Positions 11,463 to 33,896 of a stretch of 35,624 bases of DNA are shown piece after piece. The translations under genes were made by a program, and so were the position numbers. The DNA lies in the IMG/VR virus record IMGVR_UViG_2778261544_000009, one strand, 5' to 3'. Positions within the stretch are counted from its first letter, which is position 1. Each line of letters begins with the position of its first letter. Origin of the DNA: a virus. Taxonomy: Duplodnaviria > Heunggongvirae > Uroviricota > Caudoviricetes. The notes below the pieces were generated by a model. The model saw nothing but the letters and a program-made list of their open reading frames with translations. It did no database searches and had not been told where the DNA came from.

Positions 11463-12994
11463 CACAGATGAATACATTCAGTGAATACGATGTATTACTG
11501 CCGTATCAGAAACGCTGGGTGGCGGATGATGCCGACCTGAAAATCGCCGAGAAATCCCGCCGTACCGGTTTAACCTGGGCTGAAGCGGCAGATGCGGCAC
11601 TGACGGCATCACTGAAGAAGGAAGACGGCGGGCGCGATCACTTTTATATCGGTTCGAATAAGGAGATGGCCCGCGAATTTATCGACGCCGTGGCAATGTG
11701 GGCGAAAGCGTTTAATGCGGCAGCGGAAGAAATCTGCGAGGAAGTGATCACCGACGAAGACAAGGATATTCTGACGTTCGTCGTGTACTTCGCCAGCGGT
11801 TTTAAGGTCAAGGCACTGTCCAGCAACCCGAGCAACATTCGCGGGATGCAGGGGAATGTCACCATCGACGAGGCCGCGTTCCATGAAAAACTGGACGAGC
11901 TGCTGAAGGCGGTGCTGCCGCTGAAAACATGGGGCGGCAAAATTCGCCTTATTTCCACCCATGACGGCGTGGACAACCTGTTTAACCAGCTGATTCAGGA
12001 AAGCCGTGCGGGCAAAAAAGATTACAGCATTCACACCATCACGCTGGATGACGCCTGCAATGACGGGCTGTACCGGCGTATCTGTCAGGTGCGCGGCATG
12101 GTGTGGTCACCGGAAGCCGAGGCGGAATGGAAAGAAGGCCTGCTGCGAAATACCGCTACCCGCGAAGACGCACTGGAGGAATATTACTGCGTCCCGAAAA
12201 ACGGCGGCGGCACGTATATCCCCCGCTCACTGCGTGAACGTGCGGCCCGTGGCACCGGGAAAGTGTTGCGCTTTACCGGCACACCGGAATTTAACGCACT
12301 GACGGAAAGCCAGCGCCGGGCAGATATCCGGGAATGGCTGGAAACGGTGGTGCGCCCTGAACTGGAAAAACTCCCGAAGAACCTGCGCCACTGTCTGGGG
12401 GAAGACTTTGCGCGTTCGGGTGACCTGACCGTACTGGCCCCTGTGACGGTGAACGATGACACCACCCGCGAGGTGCCGTTCCTGGTTGAGCTTGCCAATG
12501 TGCCGTTTAAACAGCAGGAGCAGGTGCTTTTCTGGCTTTGCGATCGTCTGCCCCGTCGCGACGGCATCAAAATGGATGCGCGGGGGAATGGTCAGTATCT
12601 GGCAGAACAGGCTGCAGAGCGGTACGGCGATGAAGTGGAACAGGTGATGCTGTCCGTGGCGTTTTACCGCGAAAACATGCCCCGTTTCCGTGCGGCGTTT
12701 GAAGATGATGAGTTGATCCTTCCGAAGCATGAAGACGTGATCAATGACCTCGGGGCCATTCAGTTACTGCGTGGCGTTCCCGGCATTGATGATTCACGAA
12801 CCAAAGGCAGCGACGGTCACAAACGTCACGGCGACGCCGCTGTAGCCATTTTCCTGGGCTTCCTTGCCAGCAAGGATGACTGCCACCGTTACGAACTGCA
12901 CCGTCTGAACCGCCCGGCGAAACCAGAAGAACGCAACGCGCGCCGCCAGATGAAGCTGACACGCGGCCTGAAAAATGAGGGAGGTTTACTGTGA
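11459..12994 (+). CDS. Terminase large subunit
   Basis: 511 aa, preceding the portal gene, with acidic ATPase/nuclease-like motifs; Mu gp28-like by position and size. Confidence 0.8.
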   Translation: MTQMNTFSEYDVLLPYQKRWVADDADLKIAEKSRRTGLTWAEAADAALTASLKKEDGGRDHFYIGSNKEMAREFIDAVAMWAKAFNAAAEEICEEVITDEDKDILTFVVYFASGFKVKALSSNPSNIRGMQGNVTIDEAAFHEKLDELLKAVLPLKTWGGKIRLISTHDGVDNLFNQLIQESRAGKKDYSIHTITLDDACNDGLYRRICQVRGMVWSPEAEAEWKEGLLRNTATREDALEEYYCVPKNGGGTYIPRSLRERAARGTGKVLRFTGTPEFNALTESQRRADIREWLETVVRPELEKLPKNLRHCLGEDFARSGDLTVLAPVTVNDDTTREVPFLVELANVPFKQQEQVLFWLCDRLPRRDGIKMDARGNGQYLAEQAAERYGDEVEQVMLSVAFYRENMPRFRAAFEDDELILPKHEDVINDLGAIQLLRGVPGIDDSRTKGSDGHKRHGDAAVAIFLGFLASKDDCHRYELHRLNRPAKPEERNARRQMKLTRGLKNEGGLL

Positions 12995-14562
12995 ACCTGA
13001 AACAACTGGCCGGAGCCGTCCGCCGTCTGCTGAACCAGGCAACCGGTGAGGAAGACACGCTGAAAAAAGAGGCGCTCAACGAAGCACAGGCCCGTCCGCG
13101 TCATGCCGGTGTGCGTTCGGCCTCGCCGGGCATCAGCGTCGCCTCCGGGCTGAATCCCGGCAGGCTGGCAGGCATTCTGCGCAATGCCGCCGACGGCATC
13201 ACGCGTGATTTTTTTATCCTTGCTGAAGAGATGGAAGAACGCGATTTGCATTACGCCTCGGTGCTGCGCACCCGCAAGCTGACGGTGGCGGGTATCGAAC
13301 CGGTGGTGGTGGCCGCCAGTGATGACGATGCTGACGTGCAACTGGCGGACGCCATCCGTGCGCTGATGGAAGCCCCGCAAATCCCTGAGCTGATGTTTGA
13401 TTTGCTCGACGGGCTGGGAAAAGGCGTGGCGGTCTGTGAAATCCTGTGGGACACCCGCAACAACCACTGGATGCCCCGTGATTATGAGTGGGTTGATCCC
13501 CGTTTTCTGAAAGCCGAAAAACCCACGCTGCGCCAGTTCCGCCTGCTGACGGACGATGAACCGGTGGATGGCGTACCGCTGACACCGGGAAAATTCATTG
13601 TTCACCAGCCGCGCCTGAAATCCGGTCTGCCGCTGCGTAACGGTCTGGCCCGTCTGGTGGCGGTGATGTATATGCTGAAATCCTTTACCGTGCGTGACTG
13701 GTGGGCATTTGCGGAAAAGTTCGGCATTCCGGTCACGGTGGGGAAATACGGTCCCAACGCCACGGAGGAGCAAATCCGCGTACTGATTGATGCGATTGCG
13801 TCCATTGCCTCGGATGCCGGGTGTGCCATTCCGCAGTCCATGCAACTGGAGATGCAGGAAACCGCCAGCCGGAATAACGGCGGCGCACTGTTCCGTGAAA
13901 TGGCGGAATGGTGTGATGCGCAAATCAGTAAGGCTGTGCTGGGGCAGACCATGACCACGGATAACGGCAGTTCGCGTTCACAGGCGGACGTGCACAATCA
14001 GGTGCGCATGGACATTGTGCGCTGGGACGCGCGGCAACTGGCTAACACGCTGAATGAATATCTGGTGCGTCCCTATATCGAGGCCAACTACGGGCCACAG
14101 GCGCACTACCCCCGTGTTGTTCTGCGTATCAGTGAAGCAGAAGATCTGAAGGCGCTGACAGATGCTCTGGTGCCGCTGATTGACCGGGGGATGCGGGTTC
14201 AGGAATCAGAGCTGCGGGACCGGTTCGGCCTGGCTGAACCGGACGACGGGGCTGATGTTCTGCATCCGGTGTCCGCCGGGATGCCGGGTGATATGGCGAT
14301 GAACCGCGAGCGCGTCGCCCTGAACCGGGAACACCCCGACGAACTGGCACAGATGGTCGATGATGCCCTGCGTGACTGGCAGAAAACCGGCGAGGCGTTC
14401 ACGAACCCGGTGCTGACACTGGCGCAGGGATGCGACAGTTTTGATGACTTTCTGAAACGCCTGCCTGAGCTTCAGGAAACGCTGAACGCGGACGACTTTG
14501 CCCTGCAACTGGCGGAGGTGTGCTTTAAGGCGCGTGCGCTGGGGGACACTGCTCATGCGTGA
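12991..14562 (+). CDS. Portal protein (Mu gp29/H-like)
   Basis: 523 aa between terminase and the F-like gene; GTG start with GAGGGAGG RBS. Confidence 0.8.
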   Translation: MNLKQLAGAVRRLLNQATGEEDTLKKEALNEAQARPRHAGVRSASPGISVASGLNPGRLAGILRNAADGITRDFFILAEEMEERDLHYASVLRTRKLTVAGIEPVVVAASDDDADVQLADAIRALMEAPQIPELMFDLLDGLGKGVAVCEILWDTRNNHWMPRDYEWVDPRFLKAEKPTLRQFRLLTDDEPVDGVPLTPGKFIVHQPRLKSGLPLRNGLARLVAVMYMLKSFTVRDWWAFAEKFGIPVTVGKYGPNATEEQIRVLIDAIASIASDAGCAIPQSMQLEMQETASRNNGGALFREMAEWCDAQISKAVLGQTMTTDNGSSRSQADVHNQVRMDIVRWDARQLANTLNEYLVRPYIEANYGPQAHYPRVVLRISEAEDLKALTDALVPLIDRGMRVQESELRDRFGLAEPDDGADVLHPVSAGMPGDMAMNRERVALNREHPDELAQMVDDALRDWQKTGEAFTNPVLTLAQGCDSFDDFLKRLPELQETLNADDFALQLAEVCFKARALGDTAHA

Positions 14563-15319
14563 AACCCTCATCCCGAAAGAGGCGCTGGCGTGGCTGAAGG
14601 CGAAGAAGCTGCGCCCCGGTTTTGATTACCGGGATGTGTGGCGGGAAGAACACCGGAACAGCTTCACCGTGGCGAAAATGCTGCAACTGGATTTGTTGTC
14701 GGATGTGAAAGCCCTTGTGGAAGACGCCCTGCAAAGCGGGCAGACGTTCAGTGAGTTCCGGGAGGCGCTGCAACCACTGCTGATAAAACGCGGATGGTGG
14801 GGCATACAGGAGATGGATGATCCGCTGACGGGTGAAACCCGCACCGTGCAACTGGGCAGCGACCGCCGCCTCCGCACGATTTTTGACACCAACATGCGCA
14901 CTGCCCGCGCGGCGGGCCAGTGGGAACGCATTCAACGGACAAAGCGGGCCATGCCGTATCTGATTTACGAGCTGGGGCCATCCCGCGAGCACCGGGCGGA
15001 GCATGTGAAATGGGCGCGTCTGTGTCTGCCGGTAGATCACCCGTTCTGGCAGACACATTTTGCCCCTAACGGCTGGGGCTGCAAATGCACCATTCGTCAG
15101 GTCAGCCGTGGTGAGTATGCGCAACTGGCGGCACAGGGCACCATTCACACCGAAGCGCCGGAAATCAGAACTGTCCGCTGGGTGAACAAACGCACGGGCG
15201 AAGAGGAAGATGTGCCGGAAGGGATTGATCCGGGCTGGAACTACAATCCCGGCATAAACCGTGAGCAGGCGCTGGCGCGCCAGCTGGCGACAAAACAGGC
15301 CCGTTTTGACAGTGAGTAA
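14555..15319 (+). CDS. Head morphogenesis protein (Mu F-like)
   Basis: Follows the portal gene; start taken at the ATG at 14555 that overlaps the portal stop. Confidence 0.7.
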   Translation: MRETLIPKEALAWLKAKKLRPGFDYRDVWREEHRNSFTVAKMLQLDLLSDVKALVEDALQSGQTFSEFREALQPLLIKRGWWGIQEMDDPLTGETRTVQLGSDRRLRTIFDTNMRTARAAGQWERIQRTKRAMPYLIYELGPSREHRAEHVKWARLCLPVDHPFWQTHFAPNGWGCKCTIRQVSRGEYAQLAAQGTIHTEAPEIRTVRWVNKRTGEEEDVPEGIDPGWNYNPGINREQALARQLATKQARFDSE

Positions 15320-15533
15320 CCCTCCCGCCGCAAATCCCCCTGAAACGCATCAGAAACGCGTTTTTTTATTCTGATGGCGTGAATGTGCATTCTGACTTTT
15401 TTGAAGGCGCTGTGGCGTTTTTGAAGGGGTTTTGAAGGGGTATTCTTCCCGTTTTCAGTGAAGCCGGTAAATCCGGCTTTTTTTCTGCCTTCCGCATACT
15501 GACCGTCGGTAACCCCAAACGACGGAGACTGAC
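15320..15533. promoter_or_regulatory. Structured F-I intergenic region: hairpins, 3x TTTTGAAGG direct repeats, terminator-like element
   Basis: Direct repeat GAAACGC twice (15342-15360); inverted repeat CATCAGAA/TTCTGATG (15348-15377); TTTTGAAGG at 15399, 15419 and 15430; hairpin plus T-run at 15460-15484; inverted repeat CCGTCG/CGACGG at 15503-15525. Confidence 0.6.
15460..15484 (+). terminator. Terminator-like hairpin, identical to the one at 7740-7763
   Basis: Same AGCCGG-TAAAT-CCGGCT stem-loop followed by a T-run. Confidence 0.65.
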
Positions 15534-16496
15534 ATGCAACCGGAACTGCTGGCGCTGTGTTTTTCCCTGCCAGAACCCATCACTGAGCTGACACCCGCTC
15601 AACTGCCGGAATGGCTTGAACTCGTTCCTGCGGGTGAGTTCACCGGGCGTGATGGCCGGACGTGGATTAACCGCAATCCGCATGAGGTGGTTGCCCGCTC
15701 GTCCGACATCAAAATTCCGGTGGACATTGAACATGCCACCGAAATTAAAGGCCCGCGTGGTGAAGATGCTCCGGCGTATGGCTGGGTGGAAGAACTGCGG
15801 GTGACGGATGGCGGCACCATTGAAGGCCGTGTTGTCTGGAACGCGTCCGCCCGGTGGGTGCTGAGTGAGCGCCGCTACCGCTATTACAGCCCGGCGTTTT
15901 TCCATGACGCGGAGGGTGTGGTGACGCGCCTGTCCAGCGTCGGGCTGACCAACAAACCTAACCTGGATTTTCCTGCACTGAATACGGAGAAAAACCCGAT
16001 GACAGTACCTGTGCAAATCACCGGCCTGCTTGGGCTGGCTGAATCTGCCACGGTGGACGATACCGTGGCCGCCATTAAACAACTTCAGGAGAACGAACAG
16101 GTGGCGCTGAACCGCGCACAGACACCTGACCTGACGAAGTTTGTGCCGGTTGAAACCCACAATCTGGCACTGAATCGTGCCGAAACCGCAGAACAACGCC
16201 TTCAGCAACTGGAAGAGAAGGAAGCCGAGGCGCTTGTGGATGCGGCCATCGAGGCCGGAAAAGTGGCCCCGGCAAACCGTGACATGTTCCTTGCCACCTG
16301 CCGCACGGAAGAAGGCCGCAAACAGTTTGCGGAGTACACCAGAGGTGCACAGCCGCTGGTGAACAACGACAAGCCCAGCCAGGGCAAGGATAAACCCGCG
16401 CAGACACTGACCGACGCCGAACTGGCGATGTGCCGCAGCATGGGTATTACCGGGGAAGAGTTCCTCGCCGCTAAACCTAAACAGGAGAATAACTGA
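15534..16496 (+). CDS. Head protease/scaffold (Mu I-like)
   Basis: 320 aa immediately upstream of the major head gene; GGAG RBS. Confidence 0.75.
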   Translation: MQPELLALCFSLPEPITELTPAQLPEWLELVPAGEFTGRDGRTWINRNPHEVVARSSDIKIPVDIEHATEIKGPRGEDAPAYGWVEELRVTDGGTIEGRVVWNASARWVLSERRYRYYSPAFFHDAEGVVTRLSSVGLTNKPNLDFPALNTEKNPMTVPVQITGLLGLAESATVDDTVAAIKQLQENEQVALNRAQTPDLTKFVPVETHNLALNRAETAEQRLQQLEEKEAEALVDAAIEAGKVAPANRDMFLATCRTEEGRKQFAEYTRGAQPLVNNDKPSQGKDKPAQTLTDAELAMCRSMGITGEEFLAAKPKQENN

Positions 16497-17398
16497 TGGG
16501 AGCAGTCACTTCCGAAGTCCTTCACGCGCTGACCACCTGTCTGAGCGCCGCTTATACCCGTGGTCTGAGTGGTGTCACCCCACAATGGCAGCGCATCGCC
16601 TCTGAAATCCCGAGTTCGTCCGCCTCCAATACCTACGGCTGGATGAAAGATTTACCGGAGATTAAGGAATGGGTCAGCGCCCGTCAGATGGCAACGCTGG
16701 ACGGTTATGGTTACACCCTTGCGAACAAAACCTGGGAAAGTTCGATCCGCGTTAAACGCGAACACATTGAAGACGATCAGATTGGTCAGTACAGCATTAT
16801 CGCTGAACGCTATGGCCGCCAGACGTCGGAGTTCCCGGACAAGCTGTGTTACCCCCTGCTGTGTGCCGGGTTTAACACCCTGTGTTTTGACGGTCAGAAC
16901 TTCTTTGATGAAGACCACCCGCTGGGCGACGGCACCTACAGCAACGTTGTCGGCACCCCGGCATCAGACCAGGGAGAACCGTGGTTCCTGATTGATGATT
17001 CTCAGGTACTGAAACCCATCATCTGGCAGACGCGACGCGCCTTTAAGTTTGAAGCCCTGGATGATCTGAACAGCGAGCACACCTTCAAGAATAACGAGTT
17101 CCTTTACGGGGTGGACGGTCGCTGCAATGCGGGCTTCGGCTTCTGGCAGACCGCCGTCGGTTCCCGTGCGGCACTGACAGCGGAGAACTACGAGAAGGCC
17201 AGCAATCTGCTGCTGGGTATGAAGGCCACCAACGGTGAACCGCTGGGCATCCGCCCGACCACCCTTGTGGTGGGGCCGAAAAACCGTGCGGCTGCGAAGC
17301 GCATCATTGACGCCATGCTGGTTAACGGCGGCGATTCCAACATCTGGTACAAGGATGTGGACATCGTGGTCAGTCCGTTCATCACCACCCCGGCATAA
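16496..17398 (+). CDS. Major head subunit (Mu T-like)
   Basis: 300 aa; its start overlaps the stop of the upstream gene (TGATG). Confidence 0.8.
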   Translation: MGAVTSEVLHALTTCLSAAYTRGLSGVTPQWQRIASEIPSSSASNTYGWMKDLPEIKEWVSARQMATLDGYGYTLANKTWESSIRVKREHIEDDQIGQYSIIAERYGRQTSEFPDKLCYPLLCAGFNTLCFDGQNFFDEDHPLGDGTYSNVVGTPASDQGEPWFLIDDSQVLKPIIWQTRRAFKFEALDDLNSEHTFKNNEFLYGVDGRCNAGFGFWQTAVGSRAALTAENYEKASNLLLGMKATNGEPLGIRPTTLVVGPKNRAAAKRIIDAMLVNGGDSNIWYKDVDIVVSPFITTPA

Positions 17399-17427
17399 CC
17401 CGTCATCCGTAATCTGTTGTAACCCGC

Positions 17428-17475
17428 AGTTAAAAGGCGCTGTGAATGCCCTTTTAACTGCCTTTTAAAAGGCAG
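17428..17475. repeat. Two overlapping hairpins after the major head gene, including a perfect 18-bp palindrome
   Basis: AGTTAAAAGG...CCTTTTAACT stem at 17428-17459, and the perfect palindrome CTGCCTTTTAAAAGGCAG at 17458-17475 overlapping the RBS of the gene at 17480. Confidence 0.7.
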
Positions 17476-17479
17476 AGTC

Positions 17480-17791
17480 ATGAGTGAAAAAACAGGAACC
17501 AAAGGCGCGAAAGCCGCAAAGAACAGCGCAGCACAGGAAAACCCGGCACCGCTGGCAGACGTTATTGTGGCTGACGGTCAGGCGAATGAACCACGTCCGG
17601 CTGAAGACCCGGTTACTGTACAGGGTGACGCCCCTGTCCGGCTGAACGTCCGGGCCGTGTCTGAAAACGGGTTCTGGCGCTGTGGCCGTTTCTGGTCACA
17701 TGCCGGTGAGGATGTGGCGGTGACCGCTGCGGTTGCCACCCGCCTGATGGCAGAGCCGAATCTGATTGTCCGGGAAGCGGAGAAAGGCTGA
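17480..17791 (+). CDS. Hypothetical head-associated protein
   Basis: 103-aa ORF in the head-gene position. Confidence 0.5.
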   Translation: MSEKTGTKGAKAAKNSAAQENPAPLADVIVADGQANEPRPAEDPVTVQGDAPVRLNVRAVSENGFWRCGRFWSHAGEDVAVTAAVATRLMAEPNLIVREAEKG

Positions 17792-18228
17792 TGGGGTATA
17801 TCACGCAGGAAGACCTGTTACGCGCGGACGGCAATCTTGTCTGGAACATGGCGATTAACCGGGAAACCAACGAACTGGATGAAGACAAAATCCGTCAGGC
17901 CATCAGTGATGCCGAAGCGGAAATTGATTCGTTTCTGTCCCGCCGCTACCAGCTGCCGCTGGGGGTGACGGAAATCCCGCGCCCGCTGCAACGCGTGGCG
18001 GTATCGCTGGCGTTTTACTGGCTATCAGAGCGTGACAATCAAATCACGGAGCTGATCCAGAAACGCTACGACGACGCCATTAAAACCCTGCGTGAGATGG
18101 CGAACGGCACCCGCGACCTGGGCCTGCCGACGTATGCCACCCCGGCAGAAACCGACCACGGGAAAATCATTGTGGTGGGTGCCAACGCCCGGCTGTTCAC
18201 CCGTAACAACCTGAAAGGGGTGCTGTGA
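17791..18228 (+). CDS. Putative head-tail joining/connector protein
   Basis: 145-aa ORF with start/stop overlap to its neighbours. Confidence 0.5.
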   Translation: MGYITQEDLLRADGNLVWNMAINRETNELDEDKIRQAISDAEAEIDSFLSRRYQLPLGVTEIPRPLQRVAVSLAFYWLSERDNQITELIQKRYDDAIKTLREMANGTRDLGLPTYATPAETDHGKIIVVGANARLFTRNNLKGVL

Positions 18229-19378: not shown

Positions 19379-19544
19379 GCCAGCGCGGGAAAGCGTTCGT
19401 GTCCGTAAACCGGATGGCGCGCATTTATCCCCGGAAGGGGAACGTCTCGACGTCTGCGCTTACTGGCTGCGCCGTGAAGCCGAGGGAGATGTGGAAATAA
19501 CCACACTTCCGAAAAATAACAACAAAACCAGAGGGAAAAAATAA
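19359..19544 (+). CDS. Small hypothetical protein
   Basis: Short ORF ending at the tail sheath start; start uncertain (19344 or 19359). Confidence 0.35.
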   Translation: MEQKLIKPARESVRVRKPDGAHLSPEGERLDVCAYWLRREAEGDVEITTLPKNNNKTRGKK

Positions 19545-21019
19545 TGTCGCTGGGTTCAATTCCTGATGATATCCGCGTCCCGCTTGTCTGGATCGATATC
19601 GACAATTCACAGGCGCTGGATGGTGCATCCGCGCAAAGCCGAAAAATTCTGGTCATGGGCCATGCGGTATCGTCCGGCAGCGCAGACGCCCTGTCACTGA
19701 CCCGCATCACCAGTGACAGCCAGGCAGACCAGCTTTATGGCAAAGGGTCGATGCTGGCTGAAATGCTCAAAATGCTGCGCCGTGCCAACACGTACACGGA
19801 AACCTGGGCAATGCCGGTTGCCGCGCCAGAAGGCGCTGCCGCAAAAGCCACGCTGACCGTGCTGGGTACAGCGACTGAAGCCGGAACGGTGGCGCTGCTG
19901 ATTAACGGTGTTTCCGTTCAGGTGAGCGTGAGCGCCGGGGACACGAAGGAAAACATTGCAAAAGCCATTGCTGATGCGGTGACGAAAAAGCCTGCCACGC
20001 AGGTGGCCGCTGCGGTGAAGGATGATGCCACGGATACCGTGGAGCTGACCGTGAACTGGCACGGCGTCACCGGCAACGGTGCCGACGTTCGCCTGAACTA
20101 CTACACCGGAGAAGCCTTCCCGGCAGGTGTAAAGGTGACAGCCACCGCGTTTACCGGCGGCACCGGGACACCGGAAATGGCGGATGCCGTTGCGGCCATC
20201 GGCCCGGAGTGGTTTACCGATATCATCGCCCCGTTCACCGACACGCAAAGCCTGAACACCCTGCGTGATGAACTGCTGAACCGCTGGGGGCCGCTCAAAA
20301 TGATGGAGGCGCAGCTGTGGACGGCGTTTCGTGGCACGCACGGCGAGACAGGCACGTTTGGTGAAACCCGCAATGACTGGCTGATTAGCTGTATTGGCAC
20401 CAACCTGTCACCGCACCCGGCGTGGATGTGGGCCGCGTCATACGGCGCAACGGCAGCGTATCACCTTGCCATTGACCCGGCGCGTCCGCTTCAGACGCTG
20501 GTCCTGACCGGCATTCTGCCGCCTGCGCGTAATGTTCGCTGGGATATGCCGGAACGTAACCTGCTGCTGCATGACGGCATTGCCACGCACATGGTGGACG
20601 CCGGGGATAACGTCTGCATAGAGCGTGAAATCACCATGTACCGGGTTAACCAGTACGGTGATGCGGATGTGTCGTACCTTGATGTGCAGTCACCCGCCAC
20701 GCTGGGCCGTATCCGTTACATCATCAAAAACCGTTTCACGAACCGTTATCCGCGCCACAAGCTGGCGGATGATGACGTGCTGGACTCACTGGATGCCGGT
20801 CAGCCGGTGATGACGCCGAAGCTGTGCACCGCAGAGCTGCTGGATATCTGCCAGACCGAACTTATCCCGGCAGGCCTTGTGGAGAACTTCAGCGATTACA
20901 AGGACACGCTTCAGGTGACACGCGACAGCAGCGATAAAAACCGCCTGAACTTTATCTGCCACCCGAATCTGGTGAACCAGCTGCGTGTGCTGGCAGGCCT
21001 GATTCAGTTCAAACTTTAA
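19544..21019 (+). CDS. Tail sheath protein (Mu L-like)
   Basis: 491 aa immediately upstream of the tube gene; GAGGGA RBS. Confidence 0.8.
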   Translation: MSLGSIPDDIRVPLVWIDIDNSQALDGASAQSRKILVMGHAVSSGSADALSLTRITSDSQADQLYGKGSMLAEMLKMLRRANTYTETWAMPVAAPEGAAAKATLTVLGTATEAGTVALLINGVSVQVSVSAGDTKENIAKAIADAVTKKPATQVAAAVKDDATDTVELTVNWHGVTGNGADVRLNYYTGEAFPAGVKVTATAFTGGTGTPEMADAVAAIGPEWFTDIIAPFTDTQSLNTLRDELLNRWGPLKMMEAQLWTAFRGTHGETGTFGETRNDWLISCIGTNLSPHPAWMWAASYGATAAYHLAIDPARPLQTLVLTGILPPARNVRWDMPERNLLLHDGIATHMVDAGDNVCIEREITMYRVNQYGDADVSYLDVQSPATLGRIRYIIKNRFTNRYPRHKLADDDVLDSLDAGQPVMTPKLCTAELLDICQTELIPAGLVENFSDYKDTLQVTRDSSDKNRLNFICHPNLVNQLRVLAGLIQFKL

Positions 21020-21386: not shown

Positions 21387-21782
21387 ATGGCTGAAATGGA
21401 ATTTGAACTGAAACACGGGCTTCTGACCGGCAAAGGCACGGCAGATGAAACCCTGCATAAAACCGTGAAGCTGCGCGAGCTGACCGCCAGTGATGTGATT
21501 GATGCGCAACTGGCCGCAGAACGCGTCGTCATGGGCGAGAACGGAAAGGCGGTGGCCTACTGTTCTGAAGTGCTGATGGGGCTGGAGATGATGCGCCGTC
21601 AGGTTGCGGCCATCGGCAACATTCCCGGCCCACTGGACATGAAACAGCTGCGAATGCTCCACCCGGCAGACCTTGAGCTTATCAGCACGAAAGCCGCCGC
21701 GCTGGATGAGATGCTTGAGGAGGTGGCAACGCGGGGGCGAACTGATGCCGCTGGCGGCGGCACTGATGAACCTGCTGGTTAA
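21387..21782 (+). CDS. Tail assembly chaperone (G-like), probably with a frameshifted extension to 21882
   Basis: Located between tube and tape measure. An overlapping ORF in the +1 frame (21673-21882) ends inside the start of the tape measure gene. Confidence 0.65.
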   Translation: MAEMEFELKHGLLTGKGTADETLHKTVKLRELTASDVIDAQLAAERVVMGENGKAVAYCSEVLMGLEMMRRQVAAIGNIPGPLDMKQLRMLHPADLELISTKAAALDEMLEEVATRGRTDAAGGGTDEPAG

Positions 21783-21868
21783 CCTTTCTCAGCGATTCAG
21801 TATTCAGTACCTGGAACAGCTGCCCCTGCGGCAGCTGTTCCGCCTGATAAAGCAACTGGAGAAACAAC

Positions 21869-23716
21869 ATGGCAACAGGTAACCGTCTCAGCACGGAAAT
21901 CATGATCAACCTTGCCGGGAACCTGACCGCCAAAGCCCGGCAGTACGGCGCAAATATGTCGCAGTTCGCCCGGAACCATCAGAAGGCCATGCGCCTTGTC
22001 AAAGCCACAACGGAGGCCGCAGGACGCGGCCTTGATACGCTGGGTAACCGCTATACGGCAATGATAGCCGGGCTTGGCAGTAGCCTTACCATCAAACAGG
22101 TTGCCGATTTTGATGCGCAGATGCGCCGGATGGGTACGGATGCCCAGTTAACCACTGAACAGGTAAAGACGCTTCACGACAAAATCAGGGATGTATCGAA
22201 CCAGAAAGATATTCGTATTGATGCTTCTGCGCTTGGTCAGGGGGCCAGCGAACTTCTGGGGAAAACCGGTGATTATCAGTATGTGGTGGACAACCTCCGC
22301 AACATGGGGTTGATGATGCAGGCGTTCGGTGTTGACGGACAGGTTGCAGCCGGGCTGATGGCCCAGTTCTGGGAAAAAAACGTCCGGGGCGCTGATGCGG
22401 TCAGTAACATGATGGACAGGCTGTATTCGCAGTTCGCAGTGGGGTCTGTAAGCGTTGCCGATGTTGCCCGCGCTGCCCCGAAACTGTTTTCCATCATTCA
22501 GGATCAGGGACCGGAAGCCATTGCCCAGATGGGGGCATTTGCTCAGGTGTTCACCAAAAACAAAGGTAGCATTGATGAGACGGTAACCAGTATTCAGGCC
22601 ATGTATGCCTCCCTGTCGGACAAAAAGAACATCGAGTTTCTGAAAAAAAACGGCGTTGATGTTTTTGTCAAAGGCACAAAAGACATCAAAAAGCCCTATG
22701 AACTGATGATGGAAATCCTTAAACGGGCCAAATACGACCCGCTGAAACTTCAGGATGTGTTTGATCTGACCGGAATGCAGGGGATTAAGGCGCTGCTTAA
22801 CCCTGAAAACCGACAACTGATGGAACAAATGATTTACGGCACGATTGATCTGGGTTCCACGCAAAAGGCCGCACAGACCAATGCCGAAGGCTTTAATGCT
22901 GCAATGCAATCACTGAATAACGAATGGCAACGTTTTGCTGAAGGACAACTGGCAAAGCCCGTTCAGGACCTGGCGGATGCGCTCAACAGCGTGGACCAGA
23001 ACACTGTCCAGAACTGGTTGCAGGTCGGTAAATATATGGCGATTGCGCTGGGTGGCATTATCGCCATCAGAAAGACGTATCAGTTCGGTAAAACCATCCA
23101 CGACATCATGAATCCCAAAGGGAAAGGCAAAGGGATACCCGGTGGCATTACGGATGTTTTCGGCTCCGGTGTGATGCCGGTTTATGTGGTTAATATGGGC
23201 AGTGGCGGGATGAATGGTAATACCGGCGGTCTGCCGGATGCGCCGGATTCATCGCGCAATCCCCGCAATCCTCGGGGTCCGGGTAACCGTGGAGGAAAGG
23301 CAGGTAAAGGCGCTGGCATCATTGCCGGTGCTCTGGAATTTTACGATTTTCTGACCACGCAATACGCCCTGCCGGGTGAGGTTCACAGTCTCACTAAATC
23401 CGTTGCCGGTGATGCCAGCGCCAGCCCGTGGGAGCGCGAGTTCGCACAACAAAGCCAGGACAACCAGAAAGCACTGGAATCCGTCTGGCGTAAGGTAACA
23501 GACTGGTTCAATTCGCTTGGTGATAAGAACATTGCCGACCCGCGACCGTGGGCAGGTATGCAACCCACACAGAATTATCCTTTCCTTCCGCAGCAGTTGC
23601 AGGGGGAAATCCGTGTGGTGGTGGAAGGTGACGCCCGCGTGAAAAGTGTCAGAGTGGATCAACCCGGCGTCAGACTCAGTGCGCAGGCTGGCGTCACCAG
23701 CGTGGAGCAAGGGTAA
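21869..23716 (+). CDS. Tail tape measure protein
   Basis: 615 aa, A/Q-rich and predicted helical, with a Gly-rich C-terminus; downstream of the chaperone pair. Confidence 0.8.
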   Translation: MATGNRLSTEIMINLAGNLTAKARQYGANMSQFARNHQKAMRLVKATTEAAGRGLDTLGNRYTAMIAGLGSSLTIKQVADFDAQMRRMGTDAQLTTEQVKTLHDKIRDVSNQKDIRIDASALGQGASELLGKTGDYQYVVDNLRNMGLMMQAFGVDGQVAAGLMAQFWEKNVRGADAVSNMMDRLYSQFAVGSVSVADVARAAPKLFSIIQDQGPEAIAQMGAFAQVFTKNKGSIDETVTSIQAMYASLSDKKNIEFLKKNGVDVFVKGTKDIKKPYELMMEILKRAKYDPLKLQDVFDLTGMQGIKALLNPENRQLMEQMIYGTIDLGSTQKAAQTNAEGFNAAMQSLNNEWQRFAEGQLAKPVQDLADALNSVDQNTVQNWLQVGKYMAIALGGIIAIRKTYQFGKTIHDIMNPKGKGKGIPGGITDVFGSGVMPVYVVNMGSGGMNGNTGGLPDAPDSSRNPRNPRGPGNRGGKAGKGAGIIAGALEFYDFLTTQYALPGEVHSLTKSVAGDASASPWEREFAQQSQDNQKALESVWRKVTDWFNSLGDKNIADPRPWAGMQPTQNYPFLPQQLQGEIRVVVEGDARVKSVRVDQPGVRLSAQAGVTSVEQG

Positions 23717-33320: not shown

Positions 33321-33896
33321 ATGAAAATCAGAGCGATAAAAGGCATCAGAAATGCCCATTATCTCGAAAATGGTGCGGTTGACTGCGAGGTGTTATTTGA
33401 AGGTGAAACGGAATTCGTCCCGTATACCGCCATGCAGGATGATACCGCAATGACAGGCCAGCGCATCTGGGAAGAGTTACAGAGCGGCAAATGGGGTGAA
33501 ATCGCCCCGTTTACAGTCACGCCTGAACTTATCGCAGCGGCAAAAGATGCCAAAAAGATGGAAATCGAGGCGTGGCGCACAGAACAGGAGGCGCAGCCGT
33601 TCACGTTCGAATGGAACGGCCGCCCTTGGAATGCTGGCCCCGACTCACTGGCCCGTCTTTATCCGGTAGTAATGGCGGCGAAATCCGATACGGCAAGAAC
33701 CGCCCTTGCGTGGGGTGACGCCAATAATCAACAGGTGAAACTGTCAATGTCGGAACTGGAAGAACTGGCGGTAGCAATGGCGCAGGCGCAGCTCGATCGC
33801 AATGACGGGATTTATCAGCGCCAGCGTGAAATGAAGGAGCAGCTTTCCCGGCTGTCCATACTGGACGAGGTGAGAGCGTTAACTGTCGGTGATTAA
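33321..33896 (+). CDS. Putative tail fiber assembly/chaperone protein (second)
   Basis: 191-aa ORF immediately downstream of the large fiber gene. Confidence 0.55.
   Translation: MKIRAIKGIRNAHYLENGAVDCEVLFEGETEFVPYTAMQDDTAMTGQRIWEELQSGKWGEIAPFTVTPELIAAAKDAKKMEIEAWRTEQEAQPFTFEWNGRPWNAGPDSLARLYPVVMAAKSDTARTALAWGDANNQQVKLSMSELEELAVAMAQAQLDRNDGIYQRQREMKEQLSRLSILDEVRALTVGD

Follow-up and report, generated by a model that had tools for sequence, protein, structure and literature searches.

The window, the whole stretch of 35,624 nucleotides that was analyzed here, is a Mu/FluMu-like E. coli prophage that is present in 48 of 5426 complete E. coli genomes. Its head genes comprise the portal gene (12991-14562, PF06074), F (14498-15319, PF04233), the protease/scaffold gene I (15534-16496, PF10123) and, on the + strand, the major head gene T (16496-17398), the upstream high-copy cistron of the junction under study. 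The T product belongs to the Mu-like gpT family (PF10124 Mu-like_gpT, E=4.7e-111), an assignment with which the PGAP annotation of a 99%-identical prophage agrees. T is followed on the same strand by a 103-aa ORF (17480-17791, phrog_10420), the positional counterpart of Mu gene 35, then by gp36 (17791-18228, PF07030) and the tail genes. The preliminary description of this DNA had placed a palindromic element between the major head gene and the next ORF, and these flanking genes proved correct: T ends at 17398, the next ATG lies at 17480, and the 81-nt gap between them is filled by the hairpins described below.

In the PGAP-annotated copy, the genes from I to the tail fibers overlap or nearly abut. 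Only two gaps in that interval exceed 20 nt, one of 81 nt between T and the 103-aa ORF and one of 86 nt between the tail chaperone and tape measure genes. Because the latter is covered by an alternative-frame ORF, the gap after T is the single true non-coding spacer of an operon of ~16 kb. The ORF that spans the chaperone-tape measure gap (21673-21882) is probably a frameshift extension of the tail chaperone. The same gap holds a perfect inverted repeat with 12-bp arms (21813-21841, GGAACAGCTGCC-CCTGC-GGCAGCTGTTCC), which may be related to this putative extension.

The 103-aa ORF had no match in Pfam or NCBIfam and no BLASTP similarity to Mu gp35; the Mu record calls the product of gene 35 a head-to-tail connector protein, and some RefSeq copies of the 103-aa ORF carry the name 'HI1506-related'. 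Among 24 close relatives, the ORF is polymorphic at 48 of 206 first and second codon positions and at 24 of 103 third positions, whereas the corresponding values for gpT in the same relatives are 22 of 198 and 35 of 99. This equal polymorphism at both classes of site, unlike that of gpT, suggests weak constraint on the encoded protein, at least in its low-complexity N-terminal half. Translation of the ORF is expected to start from an initiation region at 17469-17482 (+), which consists of AAGG (17469-17472), a 7-nt spacer and the ATG at 17480.

The first part of the spacer (17399-17425, +) is variable and prone to indels, with 6 of its 27 sites polymorphic and indels of 3 to 10 nt among relatives in which the hairpins stay fixed. 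TAACCCG, the sequence around the T stop codon (17396-17402), is repeated at 17420-17426, and the stretch between the two copies is indel-variable in relatives. Immediately beyond lies hairpin 1 (17426-17461, +), the minimum-energy structure of the region at -20.2 kcal/mol. Its main stem consists of 12 bp, GCAGTTAAAAGG (17426-17437) pairing with CCTTTTAACTGC (17450-17461); beyond a 1-nt bulge at C17438, two further pairs (17439-40 with 17448-49) close a 7-nt loop (17441-17447). G-C pairs flank the central A-U run at both ends. The 10-bp stem described earlier is real, as AGTTAAAAGG (17428-17437) and CCTTTTAACT (17450-17459) are exactly reverse-complementary, although the true stem is longer.

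Hairpin 1 runs into a perfect 18-bp palindrome, CTGCCTTTTAAAAGGCAG, at exactly the coordinates first given for it (17458-17475). In + strand RNA, the palindrome can form a helix of 7 bp with a UUAA loop (-9.6 kcal/mol), and it contains the AAGG that is the likely Shine-Dalgarno sequence of the 103-aa ORF, as had been pointed out before. The overlap between stem and palindrome also stands, but it measures 4 nt (CTGC, 17458-17461) and not 2. Since these four nucleotides (CUGC in RNA) are common to both structures, the full hairpin 1 and the full palindrome helix are mutually exclusive. A 9-mer, TTAAAAGGC, occurs across the two elements as three exact copies and one single-mismatch copy within 44 nt (17430-17473): at 17430-38 (+), 17449-57 (-, one mismatch), 17460-68 (-) and 17465-73 (+). 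Other exact copies are absent from the rest of the window.

RNA folding, the check proposed in the preliminary description, confirmed that the + strand of this region is strongly structured (106 nt, z=-4.3, with 0 of 200 shuffles as stable); the - strand of the hairpin region folds more weakly (z=-2.15). In the ensemble of a 102-nt region, hairpin 1 pairs reach a probability of 0.99 and the palindrome pair 17460:17473 only 5e-4. The palindrome helix is thus scarcely populated in the model because hairpin 1 out-competes it, even though the conformers considered alone are only 1.2 kcal/mol apart (full hairpin 1, -20.2 kcal/mol; shortened hairpin 1 plus palindrome, -19.0 kcal/mol). Perfect palindromes of 18 bp were found in 16% of 300 Markov-1 simulated windows of the same size and composition, so that the length in itself carries no significance. 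It is several features together that stand out: the longest perfect palindrome of the whole window (the next longest is 14 bp) lies in an 81-nt spacer that makes up 0.2% of it and adjoins a second, strong helix of 14 bp (12+2), and the four 9-mer copies are crowded into the same 44 nt.

We examined the conservation of these structures in ten window-type junction variants from E. coli genomes and IMG/VR, with gpT 88-100% identical, aligned as 11 sequences when Mu is included. Both helices are invariant and the palindrome is perfect in nine of the ten window-type variants; changes among these relatives are found at the bulge (C17438T), in the loop (T17444C), at base 17478 before the ATG and as indels in the upstream spacer. 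The exception, variant L072, carries G17460C, which breaks one pair in each helix and is uncompensated, so both a weaker hairpin 1 and a mismatch in the palindrome are tolerated in this lineage. L072 also carries A17428G, the sole stem substitution that keeps pairing, and the resulting G-U pair is workable only in + strand RNA. Covariation counts for both helices across the 11 junction variants had no power, as the stems hardly vary and Mu is poorly aligned over the palindrome.

Polymorphism was more informative. The 24 distinct close relatives show polymorphism at 3 of 42 paired positions, compared with 59 of 202 third-codon positions of the flanking genes (Fisher p=0.0017), and nucleotide diversity is 0.011 at paired positions, 0.078 in loop plus bulge and 0.107 at third positions of T. 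The search in relatives called for in the preliminary description therefore revealed conserved pairing positions, and their low polymorphism indicates that the paired bases are under purifying selection, for which hairpin 1, the palindrome helix or the Shine-Dalgarno sequence may each be responsible, as the test takes them together.

The hairpin element was found at 50 places in 44 of 5426 E. coli genomes, STEC346 among the carriers, with a median of one per genome and always in the same prophage context. A dispersed extragenic palindrome of the REP or MITE-like kind was considered and ruled out by this distribution of about one copy per prophage and none outside the prophage context. Rfam gave nothing at the gathering score across the whole window, a permissive Rfam scan of 17300-17600 gave merely chance-level matches (E>=0.5) outside the hairpins and nothing relevant, and blastn of the 84-nt spacer against deposited phages gave chance matches alone. 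E. coli UMNF18 (L005) has a 2944-bp deletion that takes out the two hairpins together with the 103-aa ORF, the genes from gp36 to gp38 and the sheath gene's 5' part, joining two copies of the 8-bp direct repeat AACCCGCA (17421-17428 and 20365-20372), the left one of which ends at the 5' base of hairpin 1. In strain E94 (H31), similarity to the window is lost at about 17405.

Phage Mu has a counterpart of hairpin 1. Its GenBank record (AF083977) lists at 20068-20087, between T and gene 35, a 'terminator, predicted by TransTermHP', so that Mu's element too is a computational prediction. The Mu sequence after T reads TAACCGTCA-TTAAAAGGCGGT-TCAG-ACCGCCTTTTAA-CCTGATTTAAAGG...AGGAGG...ATG, in which TTAAAAGGCGGT-TCAG-ACCGCCTTTTAAC-CTGATTTAAAGG aligns with TTAAAAGGCGC-TGTGAAT-GCCCTTTTAA-CTGCCTTTTAAAAGG of the window. 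By our own count the aligned hairpin core is ~69% identical between the two phages, compared with nucleotide identities of 48% for T, 32% for gene 35 and 45% for gene 36; the gpT proteins are 37% identical. Both hairpins lie on the sense strand at the same junction, directly after a gpT-family gene, and share the arms TTAAAAGGCG / GCC(C)TTTTAAC, the stop-codon context TAACC(C)GTCA and, later, CTG...TTTAAA(A)GG; hairpin 1 likewise contains the Mu-type arm pattern TTAAAAGG...CCTTTTAAC. They differ in that the GC core of Mu is intact, with 6 bp (GGCGGT/ACCGCC) around a loop of 4 nt, whereas the window has GG(c)GC/GCCC, with 4 pairs, a bulge and a 7-nt loop. Mu also lacks the downstream palindrome and has a strong AGGAGG. 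The common arms and the identity of the core lead us to regard hairpin 1 as homologous to the Mu post-T hairpin, its own GC core having decayed.

The stop context occurs only once in Mu, where the hairpin begins just 7 nt past the T stop, compared with 28 nt in the window. Ribosomes finishing T would consequently reach the hairpin of Mu but not that of the window. When IMG/VR was scanned with a degenerate pattern of the hairpin arms, at least 120 loci matched, at least 27 of them linked to gpT; among the matches listed, the arm pattern after gpT is confined to window-type and Mu-type enteric clades, and neither new variants nor forms intermediate between the two types appeared. The 100% identity of the junction between Mu (L143) and Yersinia phage Tongde (L144) was considered as a sign of constraint and rejected, as it reflects a recombination mosaic instead. 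These two phages are ~69% identical over most of T and 100% identical from ~60-90 nt before the T stop through the spacer and genes 35 and 36, with the mosaic boundary inside T.

The wider comparison covered 113 distinct gpT junctions from genomes and viral contigs. One scan of a genome collection, for which exact peptides served as seeds, yielded gpT relatives of 59% identity or less and none between 65% and 88%. In 69 of these the spacer is shorter than 40 nt, mostly in GC-rich distant relatives, and most of them have essentially no room for a hairpin; a post-gpT hairpin is therefore not universal. The other 44 junctions have spacers of at least 40 nt and, with the UMNF18 deletion junction excluded, yield 25 independent spacer families. 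We found that 24 of the 25 families have a hairpin of -10 kcal/mol or better in sequences that are unrelated, and that the spacers fold far more stably (median z -2.7) than same-length coding controls from the same loci (-0.23; Mann-Whitney p=2e-8). Hence it is the position of a hairpin that is conserved across phages, and not its sequence. The sense strand is not favored in fold energy, the minus strand being at least as stable as the plus strand in 28 of the 44 spacers. Nor is there T-richness or polarity downstream of the hairpins in the 25 families: of the 8 nt that follow the GC-closed core, 2.1 on average are T, only 4 of 25 families reach 4 or more T, and downstream T does not differ from upstream A (Wilcoxon p=0.95). 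The conserved feature is a hairpin without a dependable U-tract.

The window hairpins follow the same pattern. Hairpin 1 has the stable stem-loop expected of an intrinsic terminator, but the tails that follow hairpin 1 (CUUUUAAA) and the palindrome (AGAGUCAU) both fall short of a U-tract directly 3' of the stem, which typically has five or more U in 8 nt. Terminator scores were computed with our own implementation of the d'Aubenton-Carafa formula, so that only their relative ranking is trustworthy: a hairpin after F, used as a positive control, ranked highest at +18.7, the Mu post-T hairpin followed at -2.5, and the window hairpins scored from -32 to -65 in every reading, well under the threshold for a classical terminator. 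An independent terminator scan did not call the hairpin 1/palindrome site. The post-F hairpin (15460-15480, +, tail to 15493; GAAGCCGG-TAAAT-CCGGCTT followed by a T-run) is strongly terminator-like; it separates F from I, which starts only ~50 nt further on. At the same F-I junction, the Mu record shows a terminator followed by the late promoter P_I. With the post-F hairpin on one side and the post-T hairpins on the other, the I-T cassette for protease/scaffold and capsid is bracketed by hairpins.

Transcription must continue past the post-T hairpins. From 17480 to the tail genes there is no promoter-like site except a weak match at 19516, we saw no gap between the ~20 downstream genes big enough for another promoter, and the late promoter that follows P_I in Mu, P_P, lies far downstream, as described in PMC12867686 with reference to Margolin et al. 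1989. Read-through is therefore needed. A literature search for transcript data across the T-35 junction in Mu-like phages, Mu included, returned nothing relevant. The preliminary description had read the element as an attenuator that keeps capsid expression above that of the downstream genes. A stem-loop site after the head gene is borne out by the Mu annotation, by 24 of 25 families and by purifying selection; an efficient intrinsic terminator or attenuator is not supported, given the tail of 4 U, the low scores and the silent scan.

Together, these observations lead us to favor, with moderate confidence, a stem-loop that works at the level of the mRNA, as a decay barrier and/or a leaky terminator, and keeps the I-T message above that of the downstream genes. 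The data show the anatomy and position of the element, its resemblance in sequence to the Mu hairpin, the recurrence of hairpins at this position in other families and the constraint on paired bases; we infer the mechanism and that the element acts in RNA, where two overlapping stem-loops would form in the late transcript just after the major head gene. Hairpin 1 (17426-17461), the conserved unit, would block 3'-to-5' exonucleolytic decay of the upstream segment and perhaps terminate a fraction of transcripts, with polymerase still reading into the ~20 downstream genes; in this way it would raise the I-T message above the connector and tail part. The lack of a dependable U-tract means that an exonuclease barrier or a weak, leaky terminator fits better than an efficient one. 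As would be expected of a decay barrier, the hairpin is stable, conserved in position and located between co-transcribed cistrons of very different demand. The palindrome combines CUGC, at the 3' base of hairpin 1, with a short U-run and with the A-rich Shine-Dalgarno region of the next gene; its helix would be a minor alternative conformer that may add a second barrier.

The palindrome is best described, from the comparison of relatives, as a lineage-specific second helix on a Mu-type post-head stem-loop. We consider it unlikely, though worth weighing, that hairpin 1 alone matters and that the palindrome is a functionless by-product of a U-run and an A-rich ribosome-binding site, extended by chance or by slippage between short TTAAAAGG repeats. 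Such a U-run followed by an A-rich site is inherently palindromic in its core, TTTTAAAA, to which the window adds CC...GG and CTG...CAG; relatives have the core without these flanks, and some combine a U-run and an A-rich Shine-Dalgarno sequence in an incomplete palindrome, for example CGCCATTTTTAAAAGGAG (L083) and GTTTAAAAGGAG (L096). An origin by chance would also agree with the 16% of simulated windows that contain a palindrome of this length, with the mismatch tolerated by L072 and with the lack of a palindrome in Mu. Rearrangements do occur here: two Mu-type IMG/VR contigs (L149/L280) have a tandem duplication of the post-T hairpin module (...GGCGGTTCAGACCATCAGACCGCCTTTTAACCTGATTTAAAGGCGGTTCAGACCGCCTTTTAA...) just after T, apparently formed between short TTAAAGG repeats, which indicates that the region rearranges by slippage. 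Against a mere by-product, the palindrome is perfect in nine of ten window-type variants, and its eight palindrome-only positions (17462-66 and 17473-75) are invariant in 24 distinct relatives; by our own calculation this invariance is marginal, with ~0.06 expected at the third-codon-position rate.

Rather improbable, in our view, is a translational switch in which the palindrome sequesters the Shine-Dalgarno sequence and competition from hairpin 1, or a bound protein, sets the output of the low-copy 103-aa protein. The AAGG at 17469-72 does lie within the palindrome, the two helices would stack end to end, and the near-equal energies of the conformers (-20.2 and -19.0 kcal/mol) make a kinetic or protein-driven switch possible. 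Moreover, the initiation region has its complement in the 3' arm of hairpin 1 (CCUUUUAA) and a mimic in the 5' arm; a Klebsiella relative (L006) also has a small hairpin over GAGGA; and the annotation of the 99%-identical prophage L147 includes com and mom. However, the helix that would occlude the Shine-Dalgarno sequence is barely populated (5e-4 versus 0.99 for hairpin 1), and the -13 to -6 region of the 103-aa ORF is more open than most, ranking 38th of 49 from the least accessible when all annotated + strand prophage starts were folded locally. In addition, the palindrome of L072 carries G17460C with no compensating change, the corresponding junction of Mu offers a strong AGGAGG that is not occluded, and no Rfam match came near threshold, the MS2 operator included, nor was a candidate binding protein identified. 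UUUAAA(A)GG before the start is common to distant relatives (for example ...TTTTTAAAAGGAGTTCAACGTG in L083), and so the site looks like an ordinary initiation region. The earlier idea of a translational control site or protein operator thus found no support in the thermodynamic model, in which the site is open, or in the mismatch of L072.

A more specific form of such control, which we regard as quite improbable, would treat the four TTAAAAGGC repeats as a bistable RNA. As long as hairpin 1 kept an intact 5' arm, ribosomes would have access to their binding site before the connector-like gene, the 103-aa ORF; if this arm were unwound or cleaved, for example by RNase E, a ribosome or a bound protein, the 3' arm so released would fold into the palindrome and translation would be shut off. 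If true, the synthesis of a low-copy head-completion protein would be coupled to the integrity or processing of the capsid mRNA.

It seems very doubtful, too, that a canonical efficient intrinsic terminator ends the head transcript here and that the downstream genes use another promoter. TransTermHP called the Mu counterpart, and CUUUU follows hairpin 1 directly, but every reading of the window hairpins scored -32 or lower, the terminator scan was silent, and the scarcity of promoter-like sites between 17480 and the tail genes, with only the weak one at 19516, leaves the downstream genes dependent on read-through, as does the distant P_P of Mu.

An operator at the level of DNA, in which the perfect 18-bp dyad and the four TTAAAAGGC half-sites within 44 bp bind a dimeric or tetrameric phage or host protein, would agree with the similar stability of the hairpins on both strands but is extremely unlikely, given that the prophage has no further exact copies of the 9-mer, that promoter-like sites are absent from the vicinity of the dyad, which lies within a long operon and stops 5 nt short of an ATG, that unrelated hairpins at the same position in other families fit a structure better than a specific DNA site, and that L072 has a change that preserves pairing as G-U. 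A one-mismatch copy of the 9-mer at 33336, near the expected mom start, was considered and set aside, as it lies inside an ORF that starts at 33322 and its fold is unremarkable (z=-0.58).

Major head subunits are needed by the hundreds for one capsid, whereas about a dozen copies of each connector protein suffice. The comparisons made here add to the evidence for a hairpin placed behind the major head gene in Mu-like phages. That the hairpin and not a U-tract is conserved in this data set points to mRNA stability or weak termination as the means of setting capsid stoichiometry. Hairpin 1, the palindrome and the natural G17460C variant provide a concrete test case for this question at Mu-like junctions. 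The element is an ordinary and fairly well-precedented piece of punctuation in phage gene expression, and not a new kind of element.

Its closest parallels in position are found in other phages. In T7, the terminator T-phi lies right after the major capsid gene. A terminator immediately after this gene has been described for both T7 and LUZ100 (PMC10134795). These elements resemble that of the window in being a stem-loop directly behind the major capsid gene, and theirs sets capsid expression above that of the downstream structural genes. They differ in that they have been mapped experimentally, act on a phage RNA polymerase and have clear U-tracts, whereas the predicted element of the window would face the host polymerase and has a tail of 4 U and a poor terminator score.

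A second parallel lies in the mechanism. Intercistronic hairpins act as barriers to mRNA decay in the Rhodobacter puf operon and, as REP hairpins, in E. coli malEFG. Like the element of the window, they are stable stem-loops between a high-demand upstream and a low-demand downstream cistron of one operon. A U-tract is unnecessary in those systems, which matches the pattern seen here across families. Unlike REP, the window element is not a dispersed repeat, and its role as a decay barrier is predicted. A third comparison is with com/mom of Mu itself, where Com binds at mom and a translation-inhibition stem is formed. There, as in the window, two adjacent helices lie upstream of a start codon and one of them covers the Shine-Dalgarno sequence. 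In the window, however, the occluding helix is predicted to be almost unpopulated, and the single motif copy examined elsewhere, the one-mismatch copy at 33336, lies inside coding sequence.
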